IMG/VR virus record: IMGVR_UViG_3300045741_000327
DNA from: a virus
DNA length: 26,757 nt
Reading direction: 5' to 3' (one strand)
The notes beneath the pieces were generated by a model. It was given only the letters and a program-made list of their open reading frames with translations, did no database searches and was not told the DNA's origin. Positions 1 through 10,532 of this stretch are shown here, in pieces. Made by a program: the position numbers and the translations under genes. How positions within the stretch are numbered: the first letter of the stretch is position 1; each line of letters starts with the position of its first letter.

Positions 1-2
1 CG

Positions 3-119
3 TACGAGGCATTGGTAGAGTACGAACGTCAGCATCCGGGTGATTACATTCACGACGTAAAGCGTGAGAAAAAGTTCGGATGGACGTTTGCTACGAACGG
101 ATTCCTGATTAAAACATAG
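3..119 (+). CDS. 3' end of a CDS truncated at the window edge (hypothetical protein, ...FATNGFLIKT*)
   Basis: Frame 3 is open from the window start to a TAG at 117-119. It ends 5 nt before tRNA-Leu. Confidence 0.35.
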   Translation, partial: YEALVEYERQHPGDYIHDVKREKKFGWTFATNGFLIKT

Positions 120-124
120 TAAGG

Positions 125-207
125 GCCTCGGTGGTGGAACTGGTAGACACGGCGGACTCAAAATCCGCAGCCCATAAAGCGTGAGGGTTCGAGTCCCTCC
201 TGAGGCA
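125..207 (+). tRNA. tRNA-Leu(CAA), type II with long variable arm, CCA encoded (to 210)
   Basis: Acceptor GCCTCGG/CTGAGGC with one G-U. 3-bp D stem. Anticodon stem GCGGA/TCCGC with loop CTCAAAA. T arm GAGGG-TTCGAGT-CCCTC. Discriminator A then CCA. Confidence 0.85.
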
Positions 208-222
208 CCAACTGGAACGACT

Positions 223-432
223 ATGCTGAAGTTGCGATGGAAGTCGTACGTCGTGAAGAAGCGCGGTACTCTGTGGGAGGCTGCTTGTGCCTGCGGAGCA
301 GACCTAGGTGGTGCAGAGGAAAGTGAACGTGAGGCAGCTGAGTCCGAACACTTCAAGGAGAGGCAAGACATGATCGAATTTGGTTTCACTGTCTTGCCGT
401 GCGGTCCAACAGATCGTTCTCTGATGGAATGA
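223..432 (+). CDS. hypothetical small protein (internal Met of track ORF 181..432, which starts inside the tRNA)
   Basis: ORF track. Start moved past the tRNA to the next Met. Weak RBS. Confidence 0.3.
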   Translation: MLKLRWKSYVVKKRGTLWEAACACGADLGGAEESEREAAESEHFKERQDMIEFGFTVLPCGPTDRSLME

Positions 433-462
433 GCACATGTCTCTGTACAAACAGGTGGTCCC

Positions 463-660
463 GTGAGTAAGTACAAGGCTGAGTGGAAGCCCAACTCCAA
501 GAACGAAGCCTTCTGGGATGAGGTCATGGTCGGTCGGAAGATCACCAAGGTGGTCTGGACCGAAGACAGAATCACTGGACTCATCCTCGACAGCGGCGAA
601 GAGGTCTTCCTCCACCACCTGAACGAGCACAAGGACTGCGTCGTAATGATCAAGGACTGA
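463..660 (+). CDS. hypothetical protein (65 aa)
   Basis: ORF track. GTG start preceded by AGGTGG. Confidence 0.45.
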   Translation: MSKYKAEWKPNSKNEAFWDEVMVGRKITKVVWTEDRITGLILDSGEEVFLHHLNEHKDCVVMIKD

Positions 661-765
661 TCGTGAGAGTTCGATTCTCTCCTTGGGGTAGTTTCGCGTA
701 GAGAACATTCGTGCTATTCATGGTGGTGAGCACGATGACCGCATTACGCAAAGGATGATCGAGTA

Positions 766-1017
766 ATGAACCTGGAAGAACTGAAGACAGAAGCAAGGAA
801 GCTTGGCTACAGACTCATCCCGCTTGATTGGAAGCGGAAGGAGTTGAAGGGCCTAAAGCCGAACGGGGAGACCAAGGTGGAACCACCACCTCCATCTCAG
901 CCTCCCCGTAGGGAAGATCCACGCGAGCCGATTCTGGAACAGCTCAGAGTTGCCAGAGTAAGGAAAAACTGGAAGCTCTGTATCGAACTGGAGAAGCAGC
1001 TCGCAGAGATGCACTAA
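766..1017 (+). CDS. hypothetical protein (83 aa, Pro-rich linker)
   Basis: ORF track. AAGGATGA upstream. Stop immediately abuts tRNA-Ala. Confidence 0.5.
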   Translation: MNLEELKTEARKLGYRLIPLDWKRKELKGLKPNGETKVEPPPPSQPPRREDPREPILEQLRVARVRKNWKLCIELEKQLAEMH

Positions 1018-1090
1018 GGGCTCGTAGCTCAGTTGGGAGAGCGCCAGCTTTGCAAGCTGGATGTCACCGGTTCAATCCCGGTCGGGTCCA
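1018..1090 (+). tRNA. tRNA-Ala(TGC), CCA encoded (to 1093)
   Basis: Acceptor GGGCTCG/CGGGTCC (G3-U70 present). D arm GCTC-AGTTGGGA-GAGC. Anticodon loop TTTGCAA. T arm ACCGG-TTCAATC-CCGGT. Confidence 0.85.
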
Positions 1091-1093
1091 CCA

Positions 1094-1348
1094 ATCTTGG
1101 CGGTACGCTCCACTGGGTCTAGCCGTTGACCCCCATCGAGTGGAATCGCTTAGGGCAGTTGCCGGTGCTTGAGCGTGAATACAATGACGTGGGGCAGCAC
1201 GGAGTTCTCGGTGATGCGTGCTAACGACCACGAGGGCCAGGTGGTGCCAAGGTCTGGCCTGAACTGCCCCCGACTCGCTTGTGGCTCTTCTACACTAGAG
1301 GCGCTAAACTCTGGTGATGTCTCAGGCGGGTCGGGGTTTCCACAGTGT
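1094..1348 (+). ncRNA. ORF-free, structure-rich ~255-nt spacer inside the tRNA array (candidate structured ncRNA or degenerate tRNA remnant)
   Basis: No credible ORF. Long-range 8-bp pairing GGGCAGTT(~1155)/AACTGCCC(~1262) encloses nested hairpins (GGCCAG..CTGGCC, CACGGAG..CTCGGTG). Confidence 0.3.
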
Positions 1349-1421
1349 TGGGGCATAGCTCAGTTGGCAGAGCAGCGTCTTGATAAGGCGCAGGTCGTTG
1401 GTTCGATTCCAACTGCCCCTA
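1349..1421 (+). tRNA. tRNA-Ile(GAT), CCA encoded (to 1424)
   Basis: D arm GCTC-AGTTGGCA-GAGC. Anticodon stem GCGTC/GGCGC with loop TTGATAA. T arm GTTGG-TTCGATT-CCAAC. Acceptor TGGGGCA/TGCCCCT with an apparent U1-U72 mismatch. Confidence 0.75.
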
Positions 1422-1428
1422 CCAGTAC

Positions 1429-1502
1429 CGCAACGTAGCCAAGACGGTAAAGGCAGGAGACTGCAAATCTCCCATGCGCTGGTTCGATTCCAGCCGTTGC
1501 GT
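1429..1502 (+). tRNA. tRNA-Cys(GCA), CCA encoded (to 1505)
   Basis: Acceptor CGCAACG/CGTTGCG perfect. 3-bp D stem GCC..GGC. Anticodon stem GGAGA/TCTCC with loop CTGCAAA. T arm GCTGG-TTCGATT-CCAGC. Confidence 0.85.
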
Positions 1503-1518
1503 CCATTTAGAGGTCGCC

Positions 1519-1770
1519 ATGAAGGAAACAATCCGTAAGGTCTTGGCAAAATGCACGCACTTCGACAAGAGAACTTGGTACGGTGATCTTCTACCGACCG
1601 AGGTGCTAGCTCTTTATCGAGACGGGGCCAAGTTCAACGACCGGGACGTAGCTCGAGCTGCGAAGCTGATCTTGTCAGGAGAGATGGGCAAATGGAGCTC
1701 ATACTTCACTCCAACGGAAGATCAGTTGAAAGTTCTGCTCGAACGAAAAAAGGCTGCGGCGCGAGCCTAG
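1519..1770 (+). CDS. hypothetical protein (83 aa)
   Basis: Internal Met of ORF 1474..1770, downstream of the tRNA-Cys 3' end. AGAGG RBS. Confidence 0.5.
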   Translation: MKETIRKVLAKCTHFDKRTWYGDLLPTEVLALYRDGAKFNDRDVARAAKLILSGEMGKWSSYFTPTEDQLKVLLERKKAAARA

Positions 1771-1955
1771 TGGCTACCCTGTAGCGAACCTACAGGGTAA
1801 GCGGGGTGCCGATTCCCCGCCGCGCTCATCACCTGGGAGTGGCTGAGAATGCTGTTCCGGGAGACTTGTAGTCGACCAAGATTTCCTGGGCAGTGATGAC
1901 ACCAGCACCGGGTTCGTAACCCGGATAACGCAGGGGTAGTGTCCTGCCTCCCTTT
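1771..1955 (+). ncRNA. tRNA-like structured region (degenerate tRNA or tRNA-like ncRNA), not a canonical cloverleaf
   Basis: T-arm-like hairpins GCGGGG-TGCCGATTC-CCCGC and CCGGG-TTCGTAA-CCCGG. 8-bp hairpin CCCTGTAG/CTACAGGG. Possible closing helix GCTACCCTG(1775)/CAGGGGTAG(1931). No acceptor/CCA. No ORF. Confidence 0.35.
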
Positions 1956-2029
1956 ACTCCTGTAGCTCAGTCGGATAGAGCAACAGCCTTCTAAGCTGTG
2001 GGTCGGGGGTTCGATTCCCTCCAGGAGTG
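1956..2029 (+). tRNA. tRNA-Arg(TCT), CCA encoded (to 2032)
   Basis: Acceptor ACTCCTG/CAGGAGT perfect. D arm GCTC-AGTCGGATA-GAGC. Anticodon stem ACAGC/GCTGT with loop CTTCTAA. T arm GGGGG-TTCGATT-CCCTC. Confidence 0.85.
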
Positions 2030-2035
2030 CCAATT

Positions 2036-2108
2036 GGGCTGCTAGCTCAGTCGGTAGAGCAGCGGACTTTTAATCCGTTGGTCCTGGGTTCGAGCCCCAG
2101 GCGGCCCA
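2036..2108 (+). tRNA. tRNA-Lys(TTT), CCA encoded (to 2111)
   Basis: Acceptor GGGCTGC/GCGGCCC (one G-U). D arm GCTC-AGTCGGTA-GAGC. Anticodon loop CTTTTAA. T arm CTGGG-TTCGAGC-CCCAG. Confidence 0.85.
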
Positions 2109-2133
2109 CCAAGTGCAGTAGAACGAGGAGACA

Positions 2134-2463
2134 ATGGAAACACAACAGAGCAACGAGGCGCAACAAACTGAGGTGAACCTACGGCACTTCCCGAAGTACA
2201 AGCTGACCGCTGCTTTCACGATTCACGGAAAGCAGGCTCAGATTGCCTTCGCTGCCGCAAGCCCAGTGGACAACTGGTCGAGAAGGCTCGGAAGGACGAT
2301 CGCCCTCAACCGGCTGAAGAGCGACAAGCCAGACGTGAAGCACCGCATCGTCACGGACTTCGACATCCCTGCGCCGAAGTATGAGAAGGACACCCAGGAG
2401 GCCTGGGATGCCTATCTTCTCAACTTGGCTCGTCGAGACATCCTTCCACTTCCTGAAGTGTAG
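2134..2463 (+). CDS. hypothetical protein (109 aa)
   Basis: ORF track. GAGGAG RBS 6 nt upstream of the ATG. Confidence 0.6.
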   Translation: METQQSNEAQQTEVNLRHFPKYKLTAAFTIHGKQAQIAFAAASPVDNWSRRLGRTIALNRLKSDKPDVKHRIVTDFDIPAPKYEKDTQEAWDAYLLNLARRDILPLPEV

Positions 2464-2472
2464 AGGTCATTC

Positions 2473-2865
2473 ATGGCGGACTTGAACTACATCGTCGACC
2501 AGCTCTCCGAGCTCACACTTCCAGAAGCCGGCCAGTTGGCGGAGATGGTAGCCGAGAGGTGGGGAGTCAACATCTTCCTCACCCAGAAGTCGGCACCTCT
2601 GACTGTCAATCCAGTTGCGCTGGAAATCCCGGCCGTCCAAAAGACGGAGTTCGACCTCGTGTTGCTTGGGTGCGGCCCCAAGAAGATCGAGGTCATCAAG
2701 GAAGTTCGTAGTATCACTGGTCTTGGACTGAAGGAGGCCAAGGACTTCGTGGAGTCTGCTGGAGCAGGTTCTCCCCGCACCATCAAAGAATCTTTGAATG
2801 AGGGTGAGGCAAAGGCCTTCTTGAAGAGACTCCTGGACGCCGGCGCAACGGCAGAACTACAATAG
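2473..2865 (+). CDS. rplL: ribosomal protein bL12 (L7/L12) homolog
   Basis: C-terminal domain ...[41 protein letters not shown]... closely matches the bL12 CTD consensus (E. coli: [42 protein letters not shown]). N-terminal dimerisation helix plus flexible linker present. Confidence 0.85.
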   Translation: [130 protein letters not shown]

Positions 2866-2873
2866 AACGCAGG

Positions 2874-2946
2874 GCCCGAGTAGCTCAGACGGCAGAGCGC
2901 CTGCTTTGTAAGCAGGATGTCGCAGGTTCGATTCCTGTCTCGGGCT
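2874..2946 (+). tRNA. tRNA-Thr(TGT), CCA encoded (to 2949)
   Basis: Acceptor GCCCGAG/CTCGGGC perfect. D arm GCTC-AGACGGCA-GAGC. Anticodon stem CCTGC/GCAGG with loop TTTGTAA. T arm GCAGG-TTCGATT-CCTGT. Confidence 0.85.
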
Positions 2947-3068
2947 CCAAATGTGCTGACTGCGGCTTTGGTGAATCCTAGTTGCCCTTTTGGCGTGGCG
3001 GCAAAGAAGCAAACGTGCTGGGGCTAGAGTAGAGTTGTATGGACTACCAAGTTTGCGGTCAGTTTTGT

Positions 3069-3142
3069 GGGGTGTTAGTTCAGTCGGCTAGAACGCCAGC
3101 CTGTCACGCTGGAGGCCACGGGTTCGAGTCCCGTACACCCCG
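3069..3142 (+). tRNA. tRNA-Asp(GTC), CCA encoded (to 3145)
   Basis: Acceptor GGGGTGT/ACACCCC perfect. D arm GTTC-AGTCGGCTA-GAAC. Anticodon stem CCAGC/GCTGG with loop CTGTCAC. T arm ACGGG-TTCGAGT-CCCGT. Confidence 0.88.
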
Positions 3143-3161
3143 CCATTTTCTAAGGTGATAC

Positions 3162-3395
3162 ATGCCAAGACAAGTCATCAAGATCGATGAAATGGACGAG
3201 GACTCTCGTCACGATACGTTCATCACCTTGCGCATGACAATTCAAGAAGCTCTTCGCCGAGGGCTCTTGATTTGTAAATGTGGGCATCGTGATAACAACC
3301 ATTTCACGTTCGAGAAAGGACCTTGTGCTCACTGTGATGAGTGCAAGGAATTAACACTAGTTCCAGTCAATGCCATTTCTTTTGTGGGCGAGTAG
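3162..3395 (+). CDS. hypothetical Cys/His-rich small protein (77 aa). Stop codon lies inside the 5' end of tRNA-Val
   Basis: ORF track. C-x-C...H...C-x-H-C-x2-C pattern. Confidence 0.45.
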   Translation: MPRQVIKIDEMDEDSRHDTFITLRMTIQEALRRGLLICKCGHRDNNHFTFEKGPCAHCDECKELTLVPVNAISFVGE

Positions 3396-3457
3396 CTCAG
3401 CGGTAGAGCGCCTGCCTTACACGCAGGATGTCGCAGGTTCGAAACCTGTCTCGCCCA
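3386..3457 (+). tRNA. tRNA-Val(TAC), CCA encoded (to 3460). Clear paralog of tRNA-Thr(TGT) at 2874
   Basis: Acceptor GGGCGAG/CTCGCCC perfect. D arm GCTC-AGCGGTA-GAGC. Anticodon loop CTTACAC. T arm GCAGG-TTCGAAA-CCTGT. Backbone is near-identical to tRNA-Thr outside the anticodon and acceptor. Confidence 0.85.
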
Positions 3458-3493
3458 CCATCAACTCCGAAGTAATACCAAAGGGGAATTGCA

Positions 3494-5518
3494 ATGGACT
3501 TCCGTGTCTTCAAGACAGCGGTCGCAAAGCAGTTCGATCGGATGCAGAAGCACCAGCTCTTCAGGGTAGCTGTAGACAAGGATCTACTCTGGGAGACGTA
3601 CTTGAAGAGCTTCCCGGCAGGCACGAACCCAGTCTTCCGCAAGCGCACCGAGCACGACTGTGGCTGCTGCAAGCAGTTCATCCGTGCGATCGGCAACACC
3701 GTCGCGCTCATCAACGGAGAGGTGGAGAGCATCTGGGACGTACAGATCCCGGAGGAGCAGGCTTTCCAGACTGTTGCCAACGCTCTATCGGCGATGGTGA
3801 AGTCGAAGCCCATCTGCGACCAGTTCCTGCACTATGAGAACACGGCCGGAACAGACAAGAGCTGGGAGAAGATGGTCGAGCGGGTCCAGACCTGGAATCA
3901 CTTCTTCGTGAACATCCCCAAGGGATACGTCATGAAGAAGGCCGACATCCCAACGGCTCTGAGCGGTCCCCGTTCGACTCGTGATGTGCTGCTACGCAGC
4001 TTGACGGAGATCACGGACGACGCAGTCAACACGGTCCTCGAGCTGATCGCGCAGAACTCTCTGTACCGTGGAGAAGAGCACAAGTTCGCCGTCTCGGACT
4101 TCTACAAGCTGAAGCAGAAGTTCAACAAGTTCAAGACGGACAAGGACAGGGAGATCTTCACCTGGAGCAATCTGAAGGAGACGACCGGATCTGTAGCCAA
4201 GATCCGCAACACCTCCATCGGCACACTCTTGGTTGCCCTGTCTGAGGGCAAGGAGCTGGAGGATGCTGTGAAGTCGTTCGAGGCGATGGTGGCCCCGACG
4301 AACTACAAGCGTCCAACTGCTCTCATCACCAAGGCGATGATCGAGAACGCGAAGTCCAATCTACAGGAGCTTGGTCTGACGTCTGCCTTGGAGCGGAGGT
4401 TCGCAACCATCAATGACATCACGGTCAACAACATCCTGTTCGCCGATCGTTCGGCACGCAAGATCATGACTGGAGATGTCTTCGACGAGCTGGCAGGCTC
4501 GGTCAAGACGACGGTGAAGAACCTCGACAAGGTCGAAGAGGTGCCCATCGAGAAGTTCATCAACGATGTATTGCCGAAGATCGACTCCATGGAAGTGATG
4601 ATGGAGAACGATCACATTGGCAATCTCGTGAGCCTGATTGCTCCGGTAGATCCGTCGGCAGGTCGGCTGTTCAAGTGGGATAACGGCTTCAGCTGGTCCT
4701 ACAACGGCGGCATGGCGGATTCCATCAAGGAGAGGGTCAAGCGGGCCGGTGGAAACGTGACCGGGGAGTTCTGCTGTCGTCTGGCATGGTTCAACTTCGA
4801 CGACCTGGACTTCCACATGGTGGAGCCAGCCAACTACGAGATCATGTTCTCGAACAGGGCACACACGTCTCCGTGTGGTGGCCGTCTGGACGTGGACATG
4901 AACGCTGGAGGTGGTCAAACGAGGGAGCCAGTAGAGAACATCTTCTACTCCTCGATGAAGTCCATGAAGGAGGGTGTGTACACGCTGAACGTGCACAACT
5001 TCTGCAAGCGTGAATCGACGAATGTCGGCTTCGAGGTCGAGGTCGACATCAAGGGAGACGTGTACCACTTCGTTCACGAGAAGGCGGTTCCAGACAGGCA
5101 GACGATCACGGTCGCCAAGTTCAAGTATTCAAGGGCGGGCGGGGTCGAGATCTTGGAGTCTCTGCCAAACTCCAAGTCAGTACGCACGGTCTGGGGAGTC
5201 CCCACCAACACGTTCCAGAAGGTGAACGTGATGATGATGTCTCCGAACTTCTGGGACGCCAAGGCAGTCGGCAACAAGCACTACTTCTTCATGCTGGATG
5301 GCTGCATGAGTGACGCTCCAGCACGCGGGTTCTTGAACGAGTTCCTGAAGGAGGAGCTCAATGTTCACCGCAAGGTGTTCGAAGTAGTGGGATCGAAGAT
5401 GATGGTCGAGCCGTCGGACAAGCAGCTCAGCGGCCTCGGCTTCTCATCGACGCAGAGAAACTCCCTGGTCTGTCGAGTGAAGGGCAAGTTCACCCGTATC
5501 ATCAAGGTCATGTTCTGA
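3494..5518 (+). CDS. large protein of unknown function (674 aa) embedded in the tRNA array
   Basis: ORF track. AAGGGGAA RBS. High GC3 coding signature. HDCGCC Cys cluster near the N-terminus. No motif I can assign (no P-loop, no KxDG ligase motif, no MIDAS). Confidence 0.8.
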   Translation: MDFRVFKTAVAKQFDRMQKHQLFRVAVDKDLLWETYLKSFPAGTNPVFRKRTEHDCGCCKQFIRAIGNTVALINGEVESIWDVQIPEEQAFQTVANALSAMVKSKPICDQFLHYENTAGTDKSWEKMVERVQTWNHFFVNIPKGYVMKKADIPTALSGPRSTRDVLLRSLTEITDDAVNTVLELIAQNSLYRGEEHKFAVSDFYKLKQKFNKFKTDKDREIFTWSNLKETTGSVAKIRNTSIGTLLVALSEGKELEDAVKSFEAMVAPTNYKRPTALITKAMIENAKSNLQELGLTSALERRFATINDITVNNILFADRSARKIMTGDVFDELAGSVKTTVKNLDKVEEVPIEKFINDVLPKIDSMEVMMENDHIGNLVSLIAPVDPSAGRLFKWDNGFSWSYNGGMADSIKERVKRAGGNVTGEFCCRLAWFNFDDLDFHMVEPANYEIMFSNRAHTSPCGGRLDVDMNAGGGQTREPVENIFYSSMKSMKEGVYTLNVHNFCKRESTNVGFEVEVDIKGDVYHFVHEKAVPDRQTITVAKFKYSRAGGVEILESLPNSKSVRTVWGVPTNTFQKVNVMMMSPNFWDAKAVGNKHYFFMLDGCMSDAPARGFLNEFLKEELNVHRKVFEVVGSKMMVEPSDKQLSGLGFSSTQRNSLVCRVKGKFTRIIKVMF

Positions 5519-5528
5519 GAGGAGAACC

Positions 5529-5933
5529 ATGGACGCAAACGCACTGTTCGTAGAGGCAACTCGTCAGCACTTTCGCTTCAAGACTCCGGCAGGTGAGATC
5601 ACCGTCGAAGATCTGTGGGACCTCCCGCTGACTTCGACGGTGAATCGTCCGAACCTGGACGACCTCGCCAAGGCGCTGCACAAGCAGCTCAAGGAGGATG
5701 AGACCGTCTCCTTCGTCCGCCCGGTGGTCAAGAAGACGGCAGAGCTCCAGGCTCGCTTCGACGTGGTCAAGACCGTGATCGACTACAAGGTCGCCGAGCG
5801 TGACGCCAACCTGGCCGCCAAGGAGAAGGCGGAGAGGAAGCAGAAGCTGATGGAGATCATCAGCAAGAAGAAGGATTCCGAGCTCGAGGGCAAGAGCACC
5901 GCAGAGCTCGAGGCGATGCTGAACGCGCTGTAG
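5529..5933 (+). CDS. hypothetical protein (134 aa), Lys/Glu-rich coiled-coil C-terminus
   Basis: ORF track. GAGAGGAGAA RBS. Confidence 0.7.
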   Translation: MDANALFVEATRQHFRFKTPAGEITVEDLWDLPLTSTVNRPNLDDLAKALHKQLKEDETVSFVRPVVKKTAELQARFDVVKTVIDYKVAERDANLAAKEKAERKQKLMEIISKKKDSELEGKSTAELEAMLNAL

Positions 5934-5946
5934 AAATATGGACAGT

Positions 5947-5980
5947 GAGCCGGGGCATGTCACCAAGCCTGCCCCGGCTC
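5947..5980 (+). terminator. 11-bp GC-rich hairpin GAGCCGGGGCA/TGCCCCGGCTC without a U-tract (terminator-like or processing hairpin)
   Basis: Perfect inverted repeat between the CDS at 5529 and tRNA-Gln. Confidence 0.4.
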
Positions 5981-5991
5981 ACAACAAATGC

Positions 5992-6063
5992 TGGGGAGTA
6001 GCCAAGCGGTAAGGCACGGGACTTTGACTCCCGCATACGTGGGTTCAATCCCCACCTCCCCTG
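5992..6063 (+). tRNA. tRNA-Gln(TTG), CCA encoded (to 6066)
   Basis: D arm GCCAAGCGGTAAGGC identical to E. coli tRNA-Gln. Anticodon stem CGGGA/TCCCG with loop CTTTGAC. T arm GTGGG-TTCAATC-CCCAC. Acceptor TGGGGAG/CTCCCCT with U1 opposite U72. Confidence 0.8.
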
Positions 6064-6198
6064 CCACATCTGGAGAGTTACGTGGCCAACTACTTTCAAG
6101 TCAGCTTTCAATTTCCTGGGCCGTTTGTAAACTTCCCAGATGACGACCCATCCTCTCATGCCGCTTGTGCTAACTGTCTCAAAGCGGAAAAGGAGGCC

Positions 6199-6444
6199 AT
6201 GGCATTACTTGATGCAGCCAAGGTCAAACACAAGCACGCTTACTCCTGGCCAGATGGCTCCCTCTATCGGTTCGTCATGACAGAGAAGAGCAAGGCCGAA
6301 CTTGATGTCGCGCTCCTACAAGCCCACGGTGGCGACTACAACAAGCTCATCACCAGATGGGATATATCCGAAGAAACACCCGACAAAGATCCACACAAGG
6401 CGTATCATGATACCCTTGAGTCGTACATGAACGCCGTTGACTGA
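6199..6444 (+). CDS. hypothetical protein (81 aa). Internal Met of ORF 6082..6444 with AAGGAGG RBS
   Basis: Strong SD AAGGAGG 4 nt before the ATG at 6199. The 6082 start lies just after the tRNA-Gln CCA and has no RBS. Confidence 0.5.
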   Translation: MALLDAAKVKHKHAYSWPDGSLYRFVMTEKSKAELDVALLQAHGGDYNKLITRWDISEETPDKDPHKAYHDTLESYMNAVD

Positions 6445-6526
6445 GCGAGAGTGGCGGAGCTGGTAGACGCGCTGGACTTAGAATCCAGTGTCGAAAGACG
6501 TGAGGGTTCGACCCCCTCCTCTCGCA
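6445..6526 (+). tRNA. tRNA-Leu(TAG), type II, CCA encoded (to 6529)
   Basis: Acceptor GCGAGAG/CTCTCGC perfect. Anticodon stem CTGGA/TCCAG with loop CTTAGAA. Long variable arm. T arm GAGGG-TTCGACC-CCCTC. Confidence 0.85.
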
Positions 6527-6533
6527 CCAATTT

Positions 6534-6606
6534 GCTCCCGTCGTCTAGTGGCCTAGGACACCGGCCTTTCACGCCGTTAACACGGGTTCGATTCCCGTCG
6601 GGAGTA
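6534..6606 (+). tRNA. tRNA-Glu(TTC), CCA encoded (to 6609)
   Basis: Very close to E. coli tRNA-Glu architecture (GTCTAG.GGCC.AGGAC D arm). Anticodon loop CTTTCAC. T arm ACGGG-TTCGATT-CCCGT. Acceptor GCTCCCG/CGGGAGT with G1-U72. Confidence 0.85.
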
Positions 6607-6622
6607 CCAACCGGAGAATAAA

Positions 6623-6961
6623 ATGGCAGACTTCAAAGCACCTGATGGGTGGGTTTGGGTTTGTGGTGCGTGTGGAAAAACATCTCTAACCCACTACGGC
6701 ATCGGAAACAAAAACGGCTGGGACGAGTCCTGCATGATGAACGCATACTTGCTCGAGACGGGTGCGCTAGCAGATCCAAAGTGTACCAACCTAGACCTGA
6801 AGTGGCAGGCAGGGATCATCACCAAAACCACTCCTCCAGAGTTCCATGTTCAAGCACTAGCTCGAACGAAAGAAGCTGGAGAGCAGATCTTGGTCGCTTT
6901 GAAGGCCAGGGACAGCAATTATCAGTACGAATTGCGTGAGAAGAAAGCAGAGTCCTCATAG
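6623..6961 (+). CDS. hypothetical protein (112 aa). Stop overlaps the first bases of tRNA-Arg(CCT)
   Basis: ORF track. GGAGAATAAA upstream of the ATG. Confidence 0.6.
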   Translation: MADFKAPDGWVWVCGACGKTSLTHYGIGNKNGWDESCMMNAYLLETGALADPKCTNLDLKWQAGIITKTTPPEFHVQALARTKEAGEQILVALKARDSNYQYELREKKAESS

Positions 6962-7025
6962 CTCAGGTGGATAGAGCGCAGGTTTCCTAAACCTGAGGCC
7001 GCAGGTTCGAGTCCTGCTGGGGACG
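6952..7025 (+). tRNA. tRNA-Arg(CCT), CCA encoded (to 7028)
   Basis: Acceptor GTCCTCA/TGGGGAC (one G-U). D arm GCTC-AGGTGGATA-GAGC. Anticodon stem CAGGT/ACCTG with loop TTCCTAA. T arm GCAGG-TTCGAGT-CCTGC. Confidence 0.85.
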
Positions 7026-7032
7026 CCATTTT

Positions 7033-7142
7033 GGGAGCCGTGTCACGCCTAGAAGGGGCAGACCAACATTGGGTTGGTCCTGGTGCCACGGCTCCCGTTC
7101 ACTGTAGTACAACCCGCAGTACAACACCAAGGAGTAGTACAA
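7033..7142 (+). promoter_or_regulatory. structured leader before the histone-like gene: 10-bp long-range helix GGGAGCCGTG/CACGGCTCCC around a GACCAAC/GTTGGTC hairpin, then three AGTACAA direct repeats that overlap the RBS
   Basis: Inverted and direct repeats read directly. The third AGTACAA ends at the ATG. Confidence 0.35.
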
Positions 7143-7334
7143 ATGGCCAACAAGCCCGCTGAAACACCTCGCCTCGTCGTCGCCTCCGCCATCAAGGAGG
7201 CCGTGCCGGACGAGTTCCGCGTTGCCGGAGATCTCGCTGACGGCCTGAACGCCAAGGTCGCAGGCCTTCTCAAGGACGCCGCTGCACGCGCCAAGTCGAA
7301 CGGCCGCTCCACGATCCGCCCCGACGACCTCTAG
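7143..7334 (+). CDS. singlet histone-fold DNA-binding protein (bacterial HBb / archaeal HMfB-like)
   Basis: 63-aa product ...RLVVASAIKEAVPDEFRVAGDLADGLNAKVAGLLKDAAARAKSNGRSTIRPDDL. It aligns to the histone-fold pattern of HMfB (IGRIIKDAGAERVSDDA...LARHAGRKTIKAEDI) and Bdellovibrio HBb (VVTSKVKKLIKE...AKADGRKTV..RDI), including the conserved G-R-(K/S)-T-(I/V) and the following acidic residue. AAGGAG RBS at correct spacing. Confidence 0.6.
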   Translation: MANKPAETPRLVVASAIKEAVPDEFRVAGDLADGLNAKVAGLLKDAAARAKSNGRSTIRPDDL

Positions 7335-7359
7335 GTCACCCGCTCTTTAGCTTGGAGAG

Positions 7360-7390
7360 GAGGGGCCCTTCGTGGGCCCCTCTTCGCTTT
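7360..7390 (+). terminator. rho-independent terminator (9-bp GC stem GAGGGGCCC/GGGCCCCTC, loop TTCGT, T-rich tail)
   Basis: Perfect inverted repeat followed by TTCGCTTT, directly after the histone-like gene. Confidence 0.6.
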
Positions 7391-7433
7391 AAGAGCTATC
7401 TATGCTTACGATAAAATCCTACAGGGAGGCTAA

Positions 7434-7613
7434 ATGCCTGATCAGCCAAAGACGGCTCTAGACGTGCTGAGAGAGATCATGATCCACCTCCCTCAAGTAA
7501 TTCACATCGTCGAACAGAAAGATGTTGCTCTTGCACAAGACTTGTCCAAGCATCTAGAGGACTGCCGAAAAGTTCTCAAAGCAGGAGTAGGGCAAGATGC
7601 CGCAGTGCCCTGA
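7434..7613 (+). CDS. hypothetical protein (59 aa; below the ORF-track cutoff)
   Basis: ATG preceded by AGGGAGG. Open to the TGA at 7611-7613. Confidence 0.45.
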   Translation: MPDQPKTALDVLREIMIHLPQVIHIVEQKDVALAQDLSKHLEDCRKVLKAGVGQDAAVP

Positions 7614-7845
7614 GCAGCACCTAGAGCCAGTTCACCACAAGAGGATGTCTAGGTGTCCCCGGTGTCAGCTAACCTGGCACGAGGGGTTCAGAATCCATCC
7701 ACCGGATGAAGCTCCGTCTTGTTCCTTGATCCACTACTTCGACCTTTACGACTGTCCAAGATGCGAATTACTCAATCTTGTGCAGGAAGTAGAGGACGGA
7801 TTAGTGGATCTGGAACCGACGAAGTGGATAAGTCCTCAACTTTAG
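7597..7845 (+). CDS. hypothetical Cys-rich protein (82 aa, CPRC...CPRC)
   Basis: ORF track. Overlaps the previous gene by 17 nt. Confidence 0.45.
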   Translation: MPQCPEQHLEPVHHKRMSRCPRCQLTWHEGFRIHPPDEAPSCSLIHYFDLYDCPRCELLNLVQEVEDGLVDLEPTKWISPQL

Positions 7846-7956
7846 CTATGGTAAGACCATAGCTATTTGAGTCATAAGAATATGGAGAGAAGGCTTTCTC
7901 TTTAGGACCTCCCTGAAGCCCCAGACGAGCTTACAATCGAGCTCTCTGGAGGCAAC

Positions 7957-8037
7957 ATGGCCATCGTTGCATCTGTGCTCACCCTGGTCGTCACCATTCT
8001 TCTCTATACATATTTCCGTTTGGAGAAGGAGGATTGA
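7957..8037 (+). CDS. 26-aa hydrophobic micro-ORF (MAIVASVLTLVVTILLYTYFRLEKED)
   Basis: GGAGG RBS 7 nt upstream. Single TM-like helix. Stop 1 nt before the next gene's ATG. Confidence 0.3.
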   Translation: MAIVASVLTLVVTILLYTYFRLEKED

Positions 8038-8038
8038 G

Positions 8039-8305
8039 ATGACCCTCATTACTGATGCCATGCTGGAGATTGAGCACGGCGTCAGGCAACTTCGCTCTGA
8101 ACTTCAAAGAGCGGAGGAGCTTCTGGTGCGCGCTCAAATGATTCTGCGTCAGAGCGACTTGCACAAAGCTGCGCAGTTGGTAGAAGTGATTCAAGGCTAT
8201 TTGACGAGACATGGTAAGCCCACAACCACACAAGAAGGAGTGACAAGTGAGCGGCGTTCCATTGCAGACGCTGGAGAACATGATCCTACTGGGAATGGCG
8301 TTTGA
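8039..8305 (+). CDS. hypothetical helical protein (88 aa)
   Basis: Internal Met of ORF 7967..8305, directly preceded by AAGGAGGATTGAG. Confidence 0.5.
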   Translation: MTLITDAMLEIEHGVRQLRSELQRAEELLVRAQMILRQSDLHKAAQLVEVIQGYLTRHGKPTTTQEGVTSERRSIADAGEHDPTGNGV

Positions 8306-8576
8306 TGACATCGCCAAGAATCTCGGAATGACCCCAGAAGAACTCGCCAAGCAAATCAAGGACGCCAAGGACGCGGCTGCTGTGACGATCAAGCAGCCTT
8401 GGGGGCAGCCTCTCGTCAAGAACCCCACAAAGACGATTTCAAAGCCCGACCCGGACGCCAAGACTCATCCCTACAAGTGCGCCGCTTGCGGAAAGAGGTT
8501 CATTACCTCCAATGACCGCAATCATTGCCTCGAGCTGCACAAAGCTGATGCCAAGCCAAACCGAACTGAAGCTTGA
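8247..8576 (+). CDS. hypothetical protein (109 aa). Possible HTH-like segment (NLGMTPEELAKQI) and C-terminal Cys/His pair
   Basis: ORF track. GTG start after AAGGAG. Overlaps the previous gene. Confidence 0.4.
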   Translation: MSGVPLQTLENMILLGMAFDDIAKNLGMTPEELAKQIKDAKDAAAVTIKQPWGQPLVKNPTKTISKPDPDAKTHPYKCAACGKRFITSNDRNHCLELHKADAKPNRTEA

Positions 8577-8835
8577 TTTCGAAGAATGCACAGTTTGTAG
8601 AGTCAAGCCCGGCTCTCCCGTACTGTGCGAACCATGCCTCCACAATCGAGCCGTCATCAATGAGCTCGACTCTCGCCTGAGCAGAGTGCCAAAAATGATG
8701 ATTCCAAACTACTCGAAGTGGGAGTTGTTTTGGGTCTTCTTGATACTGGCCGCCTTAGCAATCGGCTGTTGGGAAGGTCTTAGGTGGATTCTAGTTTGGT
8801 TATTCCACCACGTTTCGATTGAGTGGAAGCCCTAA
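8512..8835 (+). CDS. hypothetical protein with C-terminal transmembrane helix (107 aa). Start uncertain
   Basis: ORF track. CxxC pairs then WELFWVFLILAALAIGCWEGLRWILVWLF. Confidence 0.35.
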   Translation: MTAIIASSCTKLMPSQTELKLDFEECTVCRVKPGSPVLCEPCLHNRAVINELDSRLSRVPKMMIPNYSKWELFWVFLILAALAIGCWEGLRWILVWLFHHVSIEWKP

Positions 8836-9359
8836 TGCCGCTCACTAGATGCCCACACTATCTCGTCATTGAAGAAGGCGAGTGCATTGAGTGTTACAAA
8901 GACCAGATAGCTAAGTTGAAGCTTGATCTTGGCCGCATGACAGACAATCATGACAAATGCGGCAGAGCTCTCATGGAAACCAGGGCGGAGGCTGAGAGAG
9001 CCTATAAGCTCTTTCCACCCCTTCTAAAGGGCGTCTGTGAAGCTCTGAAGGGTACTCCTCCACCAGAATCGTTGGTCATGTACGACTGGTCAGATCTCCC
9101 AGTCGTAGCAAAGCAGCTGGTGGAGAAGTTCGACAAGGCTTTTAGCCTGCTCTTGAAAATCCAGTGGGTTGAGAGCGAGTACAAAGGTCGGGAATATGAG
9201 TTCTGCCCAGTCTGTGGAAACATAAACGCCCACACCCATGGGTGCGAACTCGGTGACTTCATCTATGCCAACTGCAAGCATGAGATGAAGCGTGGTGAGG
9301 TATCGAGCATGTGCACCAAGTGCCGCTTCACCAAATGGGATGGCGATGAGACGTCCTAG
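8835..9359 (+). CDS. hypothetical Cys-rich protein (174 aa; multiple CxxC zinc-ribbon-like pairs)
   Basis: Internal ATG of ORF 8823 with TAATG overlap on the previous stop. Confidence 0.6.
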   Translation: MPLTRCPHYLVIEEGECIECYKDQIAKLKLDLGRMTDNHDKCGRALMETRAEAERAYKLFPPLLKGVCEALKGTPPPESLVMYDWSDLPVVAKQLVEKFDKAFSLLLKIQWVESEYKGREYEFCPVCGNINAHTHGCELGDFIYANCKHEMKRGEVSSMCTKCRFTKWDGDETS

Positions 9360-9557
9360 GTTTCTTCCAAGATCTGTGTGGTGGTCTCTTTCACAGACTG
9401 AAAGAAACGCTACAGAAGTGAGGAAGACACCATCTGGGAGATATCACGTCACCATTTTCTACTGGTACTGTGAGCCGTCCGACACTTGGGTGATGCGAGA
9501 TGCACACAAGGGCGTTCTCGTACCATTCGGATACATTCTACCGGATTAGGAGAAACA

Positions 9558-9758
9558 ATGAACCCGGCACTAATCTTCATCGGCTGCATCATAGTGCTGG
9601 TGCTTGCTGGTGGCCTGGGTGTCAAAACCTGGCGTAAATGGGATGAGCAGAAATCCAGGAAGCTAGTCTCCAACCTCAAAGCCATGAGTGCACGCCGGCG
9701 TGCGCAAGAACCAACAGACGTATGGGAAGCCTGGAACTCAGAGAAGAGCGATGGGTAG
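9558..9758 (+). CDS. small membrane protein (66 aa)
   Basis: Internal Met of ORF 9486. AGGAGAAACA RBS. N-terminal TM helix ALIFIGCIIVLVLAGGLGV. Confidence 0.5.
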   Translation: MNPALIFIGCIIVLVLAGGLGVKTWRKWDEQKSRKLVSNLKAMSARRRAQEPTDVWEAWNSEKSDG

Positions 9759-10149
9759 TTTCGCCTACGGAACTCCACGGAACCGACAATGGAGAAAGGG
9801 TGTCTGGCTCCGATGCTGTGGGCACAACCCGGCCCTAGAGAAACAGATCCTCAAGAAGGCTCGCTGGGGCGAGTACATCAGCTACATCAAGATCGTAGAG
9901 GTCAAGCCGGACGGCTTTGTCATCGTAGAAGCCTGGTGCAAGAGGCCGGTGATAGACTCTGGCAAGAACTTCACGTGGAACAGACACACCGTCATCCACC
10001 TGTACATCAAGGAAGATCCCAACTGGGTATGCGACCTGAATCTAGGTCGCGGTATGCCGAAGGCTGAGTGGAAGCTCTACGAAGAGGAGGAAGCTCGTGA
10101 GCAGCGAAGTCAAAGTCGTAGCAACAAAGACGCACCGAGCAAAAGATAA
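9751..10149 (+). CDS. hypothetical protein (132 aa)
   Basis: Internal Met of ORF 9688. Overlaps the previous stop. Confidence 0.45.
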   Translation: MGSFAYGTPRNRQWRKGVWLRCCGHNPALEKQILKKARWGEYISYIKIVEVKPDGFVIVEAWCKRPVIDSGKNFTWNRHTVIHLYIKEDPNWVCDLNLGRGMPKAEWKLYEEEEAREQRSQSRSNKDAPSKR

Positions 10150-10360
10150 GCAAGGGAGACAACTCGGCCACATTGGCGAAGTTGAGCGAAGAGTCATCAA
10201 GAATGTTGCAACCTTCGGCGGGAAGCGTTTTGCTGCCTGGCGTAGATTGACTGCCAATGGCGTTCCTATTGGCAGGCCAGAACGTTTTGATACCTTCTCA
10301 ACCGAAGAGAAAGCCATCGAGCACGCTGAGCGCATCTGCAAGAGCTCACAGGTAGAGTGA
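10097..10360 (+). CDS. hypothetical protein (87 aa)
   Basis: GTG start 7 nt after AGGAGG. Confidence 0.45.
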   Translation: MSSEVKVVATKTHRAKDKQGRQLGHIGEVERRVIKNVATFGGKRFAAWRRLTANGVPIGRPERFDTFSTEEKAIEHAERICKSSQVE

Positions 10361-10532
10361 TGACGGACGAAGAGTTCAAGGCACTCAACATCAGGCCGCC
10401 ACAGCCGTTAGACAAGCAGTGCGTACAGATGCACAAGCTGGGCTATTGTGTCTGTACGATGGTGGACTGTATGTGGTGTGATGGTCGTCATCCTCCAAGC
10501 AAAAACTGCCGAAAAATAGAAGGAGGTGCGAA

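Follow-up and report, generated by a model that had tools for sequence, protein, structure and literature searches.

We found that the gene at positions 2473..2865 (plus strand) of a 26,757-nt stretch of viral DNA (IMG/VR record IMGVR_UViG_3300045741_000327, the whole of which is called the window here) is, judging from its sequence, a genuine full-length homologue of the ribosomal stalk protein bL12 (L7/L12). We consider it fairly probable that it encodes a complete, phage-borne stalk protein that stems from an ancient bacterial, probably proteobacterial, donor and has since been maintained by selection. The open reading frame runs from an ATG to a TAG stop and specifies 130 aa. Searched against Pfam, the product matched the Ribosomal_L12 C-terminal domain (PF00542) with 78.1 bits (E 6.3e-22; gathering score 25.9), aa 60-130 covering the full profile (1-67/67). 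An earlier note on this DNA had predicted this domain and had staked the claim on a match to its profile; the search bore the prediction out, while the motif quoted there as KTEFDV actually reads KTEFDL. The N-terminal dimerisation domain (PF16320) passed marginally, at 25.6 bits for a threshold of 25.0, and the NCBIfam equivalog model of full-length L12 (TIGR00855) reached 92.5 bits (cut-off 84.4) over aa 1-129 of 130. PDB bL12 chains from Thermus, Thermotoga, Deinococcus and Escherichia coli also matched aa 3-129, with E values of 2.8e-20 to 6e-16. The start codon can be regarded as fixed, since the protein begins (MADLN) in register with residue 1 of its bacterial counterparts. A Shine-Dalgarno-like AGAGGT (2462..2467, plus strand) lies 5 nt upstream of the ATG and overlaps the TAG stop of the preceding ORF (2134..2463), an arrangement consistent with translational coupling of the two genes. 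A minus-strand ORF of 99 aa with a TTG start (2487..2786) overlaps the bL12 gene; it was without support and we rejected it as a shadow ORF.

The bL12 protein is built of an N-terminal hairpin, which is its dimerisation and bL10-binding module, a flexible hinge that is typically rich in Ala, Gly and Pro, and a factor-binding C-terminal domain. All three parts could be recognized in the window protein. The AlphaFold2 model, built on a 20-sequence alignment and with a mean pLDDT of 63, predicts a canonical bL12 hairpin, a disordered hinge and a C-terminal domain of beta-alpha-alpha-beta-alpha-beta order. The N-terminal domain (aa 1-32; 2473..2568, plus strand) was modelled as two helices, aa 2-13 and 18-30. 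The hinge (aa 33-57; 2569..2643, plus strand) falls in a segment, aa 31-57, for which no secondary structure was predicted and pLDDT was below 50. The alpha/beta C-terminal domain (aa 58-130; 2644..2862, plus strand) comprises, in the model, strands at aa 60-66, 102-108 and 126-129 and helices at aa 71-82, 86-97 and 110-122. The N-terminal helix and linker proposed from the letters alone are thus recovered as a modelled two-helix hairpin, with a pass for PF16320, and a 25-aa disordered hinge.

The protein was compared with 74 bacterial bL12 proteins from loci with bL10 directly upstream, a set biased to its closest relatives. Mean identity to this set was 57% in the N-terminal domain and 59% in the C-terminal domain, and of the positions conserved in at least 90% of the bacterial proteins, 15/21 and 29/38, respectively, were kept; substitutions in both domains were mostly conservative. 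The hinge, whose mean identity was 14%, kept none of its seven such positions. Its length is normal (25 aa vs 24.1 +/- 1.5 in bacteria), but its composition is far from bacterial. Ala, Gly and Pro make up 24% of it, compared with 73 +/- 7% in bacteria (minimum 38%), and bulky hydrophobic residues, including a hydrophobic IFL stretch, make up another 24%, compared with 1 +/- 3% (maximum 15%). The hinges of all five PDB species aligned with the phage protein are rich in Ala, Gly and Pro. Because of its normal length and predicted disorder, the modelled hinge is probably still flexible.

Helices 4 and 5 (aa 70-91; 2680..2745, plus strand), located by alignment to E. coli bL12, form the translational-GTPase-binding surface. 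They are a conserved, positively charged site for IF2, EF-Tu, EF-G and RF3 (PMC6753160). The E. coli residues K65, V66, I69, K70 and R73 pair with K71, I72, I75, K76 and R79 of the phage protein, and G79, L80, K81, E82 and K84 with G85, L86, K87, E88 and K90. All ten positions compared are therefore identical or changed from V to I. Conservation of the two domains together with divergence of the hinge is the pattern expected of selection on both functional domains, and the retained functional residues point to purifying selection and to a retained function. For a dN/dS estimate, the single near-identical sequence offers a difference of 1 nt, and at 54% identity, that of the relative after it, synonymous sites are saturated. 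The hinge is also essential to bL12 activity (PMC6753160), and because its composition here lies far outside the bacterial range, the function of the phage protein could be impaired or changed.

The ancestry of the gene appears to be old. Among 5.8 billion proteins, the only match above 90% identity was the bL12 protein itself, and cellular matches (Sphingomonas, Acetobacter, Myxococcota) were 48-52% identical, with none above about 52%, which argues against a recent capture. GenBank phages and IMG/VR contained no close relative (best 48%), an IMG/VR scan with the bL12 protein alone giving distant matches only. A metagenome scan likewise yielded no close relative; it returned almost exclusively bacterial rplJL loci at 45-51% identity, which served as our control set. 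Three proteins with high scores (P0002, P0003 and P0007, 133-115 bits) were rejected as special relatives, as stretches of bL12 are duplicated within them and they probably represent assembly chimeras of bacterial genes. The most identical protein was P0055 (JGI 3300050821), at 54%, which shares the loop KDF.ESAG.G with the window protein. It is encoded on a 5.3-kb contig beside a T4 gp13-like gene and a carbamoyltransferase gene, and because of these neighbours and the lack of ribosomal genes nearby we regard it as another bL12 in a phage context. In a neighbor-joining tree the two proteins were sisters with weak bootstrap support (55%), and the window protein sat on a long branch. The GC content of the gene (0.56) and its GC3 (0.69) fall inside the range of the other genes of the window. 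Together, the identity levels, the tree and the matching composition suggest an old acquisition, with a proteobacterium as the probable donor, after which the gene diverged while its two domains stayed under constraint.

The gene is located among 13 tRNA genes that form an array with small ORFs in between (125..7028), all on the plus strand. ARAGORN and Rfam found the same 13 tRNAs, as the earlier note had counted them. That note also placed the bL12 gene directly between tRNA-Lys and tRNA-Thr, which holds on one side. The tRNA-Thr (UGU) gene (2874..2949, plus strand; Rfam 70.6 bits) begins 8 nt past the bL12 stop codon. The tRNA-Lys (UUU) gene (2036..2111, plus strand; RF00005, 70.3 bits) is not adjacent: after a 22-nt gap it is followed by a 109-aa ORF (2134..2463, plus strand), the true 5' neighbour, which is separated from the bL12 ATG by 9 nt. 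It is a two-gene cassette that sits between the two tRNA genes, with tRNA-Lys as its 5' boundary. The product of the 109-aa ORF had no match in Pfam, NCBIfam or PHROG, and its eleven distant relatives were mostly small proteins. We considered whether it could be a diverged bL10 and rejected this, given the lack of any family match and a bL10 panel that was blank in the window. A role as dedicated partner of bL12 was also rejected: its nearest homologue examined (P0124, 48% identity) is encoded in a 168-kb phage-like contig without bL12.

In cells, the bL12 gene shares the rplJL operon with rplJ, the bL10 gene, which precedes it. A panel of bL10 sequences gave no tblastn match anywhere in the window. 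Among 80 bacterial loci from metagenomes, the same panel recognized a bL10 gene immediately before bL12 in 77, and the remaining three are too short to be judged. Rfam detected only tRNAs over the window, with no L10 leader RNA. The missing rplJ partner is a trait of the gene rather than of the protein, and it is what would be expected of a viral copy. Across 1..7500, promoter-like and terminator-like sites did not exceed the shuffled expectation.

By HMM classification, the bL12-like viral proteins from the IMG/VR scans fell into two classes. Dozens of phage proteins carry only a motif resembling the C-terminal domain (helices 4 and 5), embedded in unrelated sequence. A smaller set is full-length and encoded without bL10: the window protein and those of loci L002/L017, L010, L012-14, L015, L018, L022, L023 and L048. 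A tRNA gene was found within 1 kb of bL12 at 5 of these 11 loci (the window, L015, L022, L023 and L048, with arrays of 12-23 tRNAs) and at 4 of 67 loci of the first class (Fisher p = 0.002, or 0.003 with related loci collapsed); because the sample is small and was picked by sequence pattern, this recurrence is a lead and not a result. At L002, bL12 is 1.2 kb from three tRNAs and next to IF3-like and bS21-like genes. Phage markers were present near several copies, namely a T4-type RNA ligase gene in L015, a UvsX-like gene in L022 and HNH endonuclease genes in L048. The proteins of L002, L015, L022, L023 and L048, and P0055, resemble the window protein in having an N-terminal domain, a hinge and a C-terminal domain without an accompanying bL10, several of them within tRNA arrays. 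In contrast to the window protein, with which they group weakly, the other full-length viral proteins derive from different bacterial lineages (low-GC loci and actinobacterial-type). Placement of bL12 next to tRNA genes thus appears to recur across unrelated phages, and most full-length viral copies have hinges poor in Ala, Gly and Pro.

The rest of the window makes a phage origin probable, on the strength of a few phage-family genes. A gene pair on the plus strand (3494..5933) encodes proteins of 674 and 134 aa belonging to phrog_1735 and phrog_2018 (PHROG E values of 2e-281 and 9.7e-45). They share 59% and 44% identity, as well as gene order, with gp145 and gp144 of Caulobacter phage phiCbK. 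The phiCbK genome is roughly 216 kb. A 905-aa ORF with major-vault-protein domains matched, in the phage collection, only huge-phage genomes of 462-735 kb. The window also contains a nucleoside 2-deoxyribosyltransferase-like gene. An IMG/VR scan with the 674-aa protein gave no match, the peptide patterns being too specific, and when 25 kb of the window was compared with GenBank phages by megablast, short tRNA matches only and no related genome came up.

Because none of the 26.7 kb encodes a structural protein, a phage origin is probable rather than proven. The stretch could instead be a bacterial island, a plasmid, another element or an assembly chimera, its bL12 then being a cellular paralogue, a view favoured by the lack of capsid, tail, portal and terminase genes, by the orphans that make up most of its ORFs and by a scan of the IMG/VR collection that did not recover the contig. 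We find it highly improbable, since the phiCbK-like pair is syntenic, the vault-like protein has matches confined to huge phages, and all plausible genes lie on one strand with neither a housekeeping gene nor bL10 among them. A chimera is further opposed by a Logan contig (SRR35487356), not necessarily from an independent sample, that is 99.9% identical over positions 2054-3140 of the window and reproduces both junctions of the cassette formed by the 109-aa ORF and bL12.

If the gene is indeed that of a phage stalk protein, it would probably act as follows. The bL12 gene would be transcribed with the surrounding tRNA genes in one long precursor; no promoter or terminator above chance separates it from the array. 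tRNA processing, 8 nt beyond the stop codon, would generate the 3' end of its mRNA, and translation would start from the Shine-Dalgarno site of the gene itself. Through its conserved N-terminal hairpin the product would dimerise, and the dimers may exchange onto the C-terminal helix of host bL10, as those of cellular bL12 do. The conserved surface of helices 4 and 5 would recruit host IF2, EF-Tu, EF-G and RF3. Alongside the phage tRNAs, the protein could maintain full stalk occupancy and rapid elongation in the infected cell. The rewritten hinge may change how far the factor-binding domain reaches or how it moves. Of these steps, we infer ribosome incorporation, binding to host bL10, co-transcription and the benefit to the phage. 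The earlier note saw in this gene a deliberate remodelling of host translation, a reading that may hold but has weak experimental backing in the literature.

An intact stalk protein need not stimulate translation. Free dimers might titrate the GTPase factors of the host, or dimers with an abnormal hinge might fill the bL10 sites, so as to slow or re-programme host translation, for instance in host shut-off. The hinge lends this some weight, as it is required for activity yet compositionally aberrant and rich in hydrophobic residues while both binding modules are intact; moreover, ribosomes carrying a phage bS21 were severely impaired in vitro (PMC6375957), so a stimulatory effect cannot be assumed for viral ribosomal proteins. 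We still think such a decoy or inhibitor quite unlikely: the gene lies among 13 tRNA genes, which are normally taken as translation support, the hinge is of normal length, predicted to be disordered and probably still flexible, and the phage needs the same ribosomes for its own proteins. The protein might also serve away from ribosomes, as an adaptor for some factor of phage or host, which may hold for the phage proteins carrying only the helix 4/5 motif. The dozens of such proteins in IMG/VR would fit, as would the PHROG matches to the window protein, which were restricted to aa 64-98, and the bL12 domains reported inside much larger phage polypeptides (PMC6375957). The window protein, however, passes the full-length equivalog model and keeps a complete N-terminal, bL10-binding domain, which is hard to explain unless attachment to the stalk still matters, and we judge an off-ribosome role very unlikely.

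The gene could, finally, be a neutral passenger, a host gene captured in a recombination-prone tRNA region without a selected function. tRNA regions may be permissive insertion sites, and arrays of this kind are mosaic regions full of orphan ORFs. No close phage relative carries bL12, and the phiCbK-like phages that share the neighbouring phrog_1735/phrog_2018 pair lack it. Against this, the reading frame and Shine-Dalgarno site are intact, the composition matches the rest of the contig, and the protein is about 50% diverged from every cellular bL12 with its functional positions preserved and only the hinge randomised. The same arrangement of bL12 and tRNA genes, which appears in several unrelated phage lineages, also speaks against it, and we see only a slim chance that the gene is a mere passenger. 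A selected stalk protein remains our preferred reading, and it can be extended. Large phages of unrelated lineages may repeatedly have built a "translation booster", in which a complete bL12 with a non-alanine hinge is encoded in a tRNA array and expressed from the same precursor, the divergence of the hinge (in the window, L012, L015, L022, L023 and L048) being adaptive rather than drift. We put this forward as speculation and think it rather unlikely to hold in full. If it did, the altered hinge would change the space sampled by the factor-binding head, and GTPases would be recruited with different kinetics. The bL12-depleted ribosomes of slow-growing hosts might thereby be re-armed, or ternary complexes with phage tRNAs favoured.

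With bacterial bL12 (rplL; TIGR00855, PF16320 and PF00542), the window protein shares the 130-aa length class, the three-part architecture, a net acidic character, the conserved N-terminal hairpin and the factor-binding residues of helices 4 and 5, at 48-52% identity (Sphingomonas, Acetobacter, Myxococcota). It differs in its replaced hinge and long branch, and its gene in lying among tRNA genes without the rplJ-rplL operon, bL10 or the L10 leader. Mizuno et al. (2019, PMC6375957) ranked bL12 second in frequency among the ribosomal proteins encoded by viruses, and noted a tendency of viruses to carry those ribosomal proteins that are readily exchanged from one ribosome to another. The bL12 domains of Ralstonia phage RSB3, Dinoroseobacter phage DFL12phi1 and Salmonella phage FSL SP-076 described in that study also retain the EF-Tu and EF-G residues, and viral bL12 was interpreted there as replacing or supplementing that of the host. 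In the cultured phages, with genomes below 80 kb, these domains are about 30-40% identical to cellular ones and often lie in larger proteins (up to 724 aa). The window protein, unlike these, is a complete two-domain protein of about 50% identity and equivalog level, encoded in a tRNA array of what is probably a large phage. A single peptide from a phage protein with a bL12 domain was identified in purified 70S ribosomes of E. coli, but the tagged phage bL12 was unusable for ribosome purification (PMC6375957), so its incorporation was weak or inefficient.

In huge phages, L7/L12 has been listed with tRNAs, IF1/IF3, S1 and S21 in the translation repertoire (Al-Shayeb et al., 2020, PMC7162821), and it is with these genomes alone, within the phage collection, that the 905-aa neighbour in the window finds its matches. 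A homologue of L7/L12 has also been reported in the cultured Herbaspirillum jumbophage Aino (2026 study, PMC13573597). Neither report describes the completeness of the bL12 domains, the divergence of the hinge or placement in a tRNA array.

Phage bL12 genes were therefore already known (Mizuno et al., 2019; Al-Shayeb et al., 2020), and the gene of the window is a well-preserved further example. What it adds is modest: an equivalog-grade two-domain protein, a selectively rewritten hinge and a tRNA-side placement that apparently recurs. Phage-encoded ribosomal proteins blur the line between virus and cell, and the functional evidence is thin, that for phage bL12 having so far come from a bL12 domain within a larger phage protein. 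The intact factor-binding residues and rewritten hinge of the window protein amount to a natural hinge-swap experiment, which makes it a convenient candidate for asking whether bL12 from a virus can attach to host bL10 and alter translation. Should adjacency to tRNA genes hold up in larger surveys, phages would seem to combine the supply of tRNAs and the recruitment of GTPases in a single module.

Most of the 13 tRNAs in the array that includes the bL12 gene (window 125..7028, + strand) read A-ending or minor codons, namely UUG, GCA, AGA, AGG, ACA, GUA, CAA, CUA, GAA, and AAA. Codon usage was computed from 15 window genes, in which these codons were minor as well (5-19% of their families), except for AGG and GCA, which represented 28% of Arg and 20% of Ala codons, respectively. 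Since the array-read codons are mostly minor there, the anticodon set is no simple mirror of codon usage in these 15 genes.

Directly 5' of bL12, a 109-aa ORF (window 2134..2463, + strand) belongs to a small family with the motif IRHFP..RLT...A.A...D.W.R..GR.IA..RL and is possibly translationally coupled to bL12. An exhaustive phmmer search recovered 11 relatives of this ORF. Among them, a protein of 5,126 aa (P0122) had 18 tandem matches, and another of 3,460 aa (P0128) was also matched.

The phrog_1735/phrog_2018 gene pair (window 3494..5933, + strand), approximately 630 nt 3' of bL12, is present in 546 phage records. We also observed it in the IMG/VR locus L043 (7788..11823), approximately 1.3 kb downstream of a gene for a 103-aa protein, which is flanked by tRNA-Leu and tRNA-Lys and whose product carries a bL12 helix 4/5-like motif at its C-terminal end. 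With two cases only (the window and L043), recurrent linkage between this pair and a bL12-like gene is possible. Further along the window, we identified a nucleoside 2-deoxyribosyltransferase-like protein (14403..14882, + strand; PF15891, 71.7 bits). Caulobacter phage phiCbK similarly has its own gene of this type (gp163), in the same region as gp145/gp144, the phiCbK genes syntenic with the phrog pair. The window also encodes a 905-aa major-vault-protein-like ORF (16105..18822, + strand; Pfam MVP_shoulder, 83 bits; Vault_3, 41.6 bits) with a GC3 of 0.93, and its only matches in the phage collection were the huge-phage genomes LR756500/501/503 (462-735 kb; 38-41% identity).

In a low-GC, 124-kb viral contig (L002, IMGVR_UViG_3300026189_001009; 6153..10363), proteins resembling ClpX, IF3, and bS21 are encoded in a row with three tRNAs, a cysteine desulfurase resembling SufS, and full-length bL12. 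These consecutive genes, identified by eye from their translations, form a compact translation and proteostasis cluster. In a 55-kb viral contig (L015, IMGVR_UViG_3300046504_000195; 7327..8354), a tmRNA gene lies directly 5' of full-length bL12, both within a 20-tRNA array, and a T4 RnlA-like RNA ligase gene is close by. Two low-GC (27-28%) huge-phage contigs from IMG/VR, L023 (322 kb) and L048 (241 kb), each carry a CUA-anticodon tRNA, labeled 'Pyl' by ARAGORN, in their bL12-bearing arrays. This tRNA is probably an amber suppressor, and such a putative suppressor hints at alternative coding in these huge phages.
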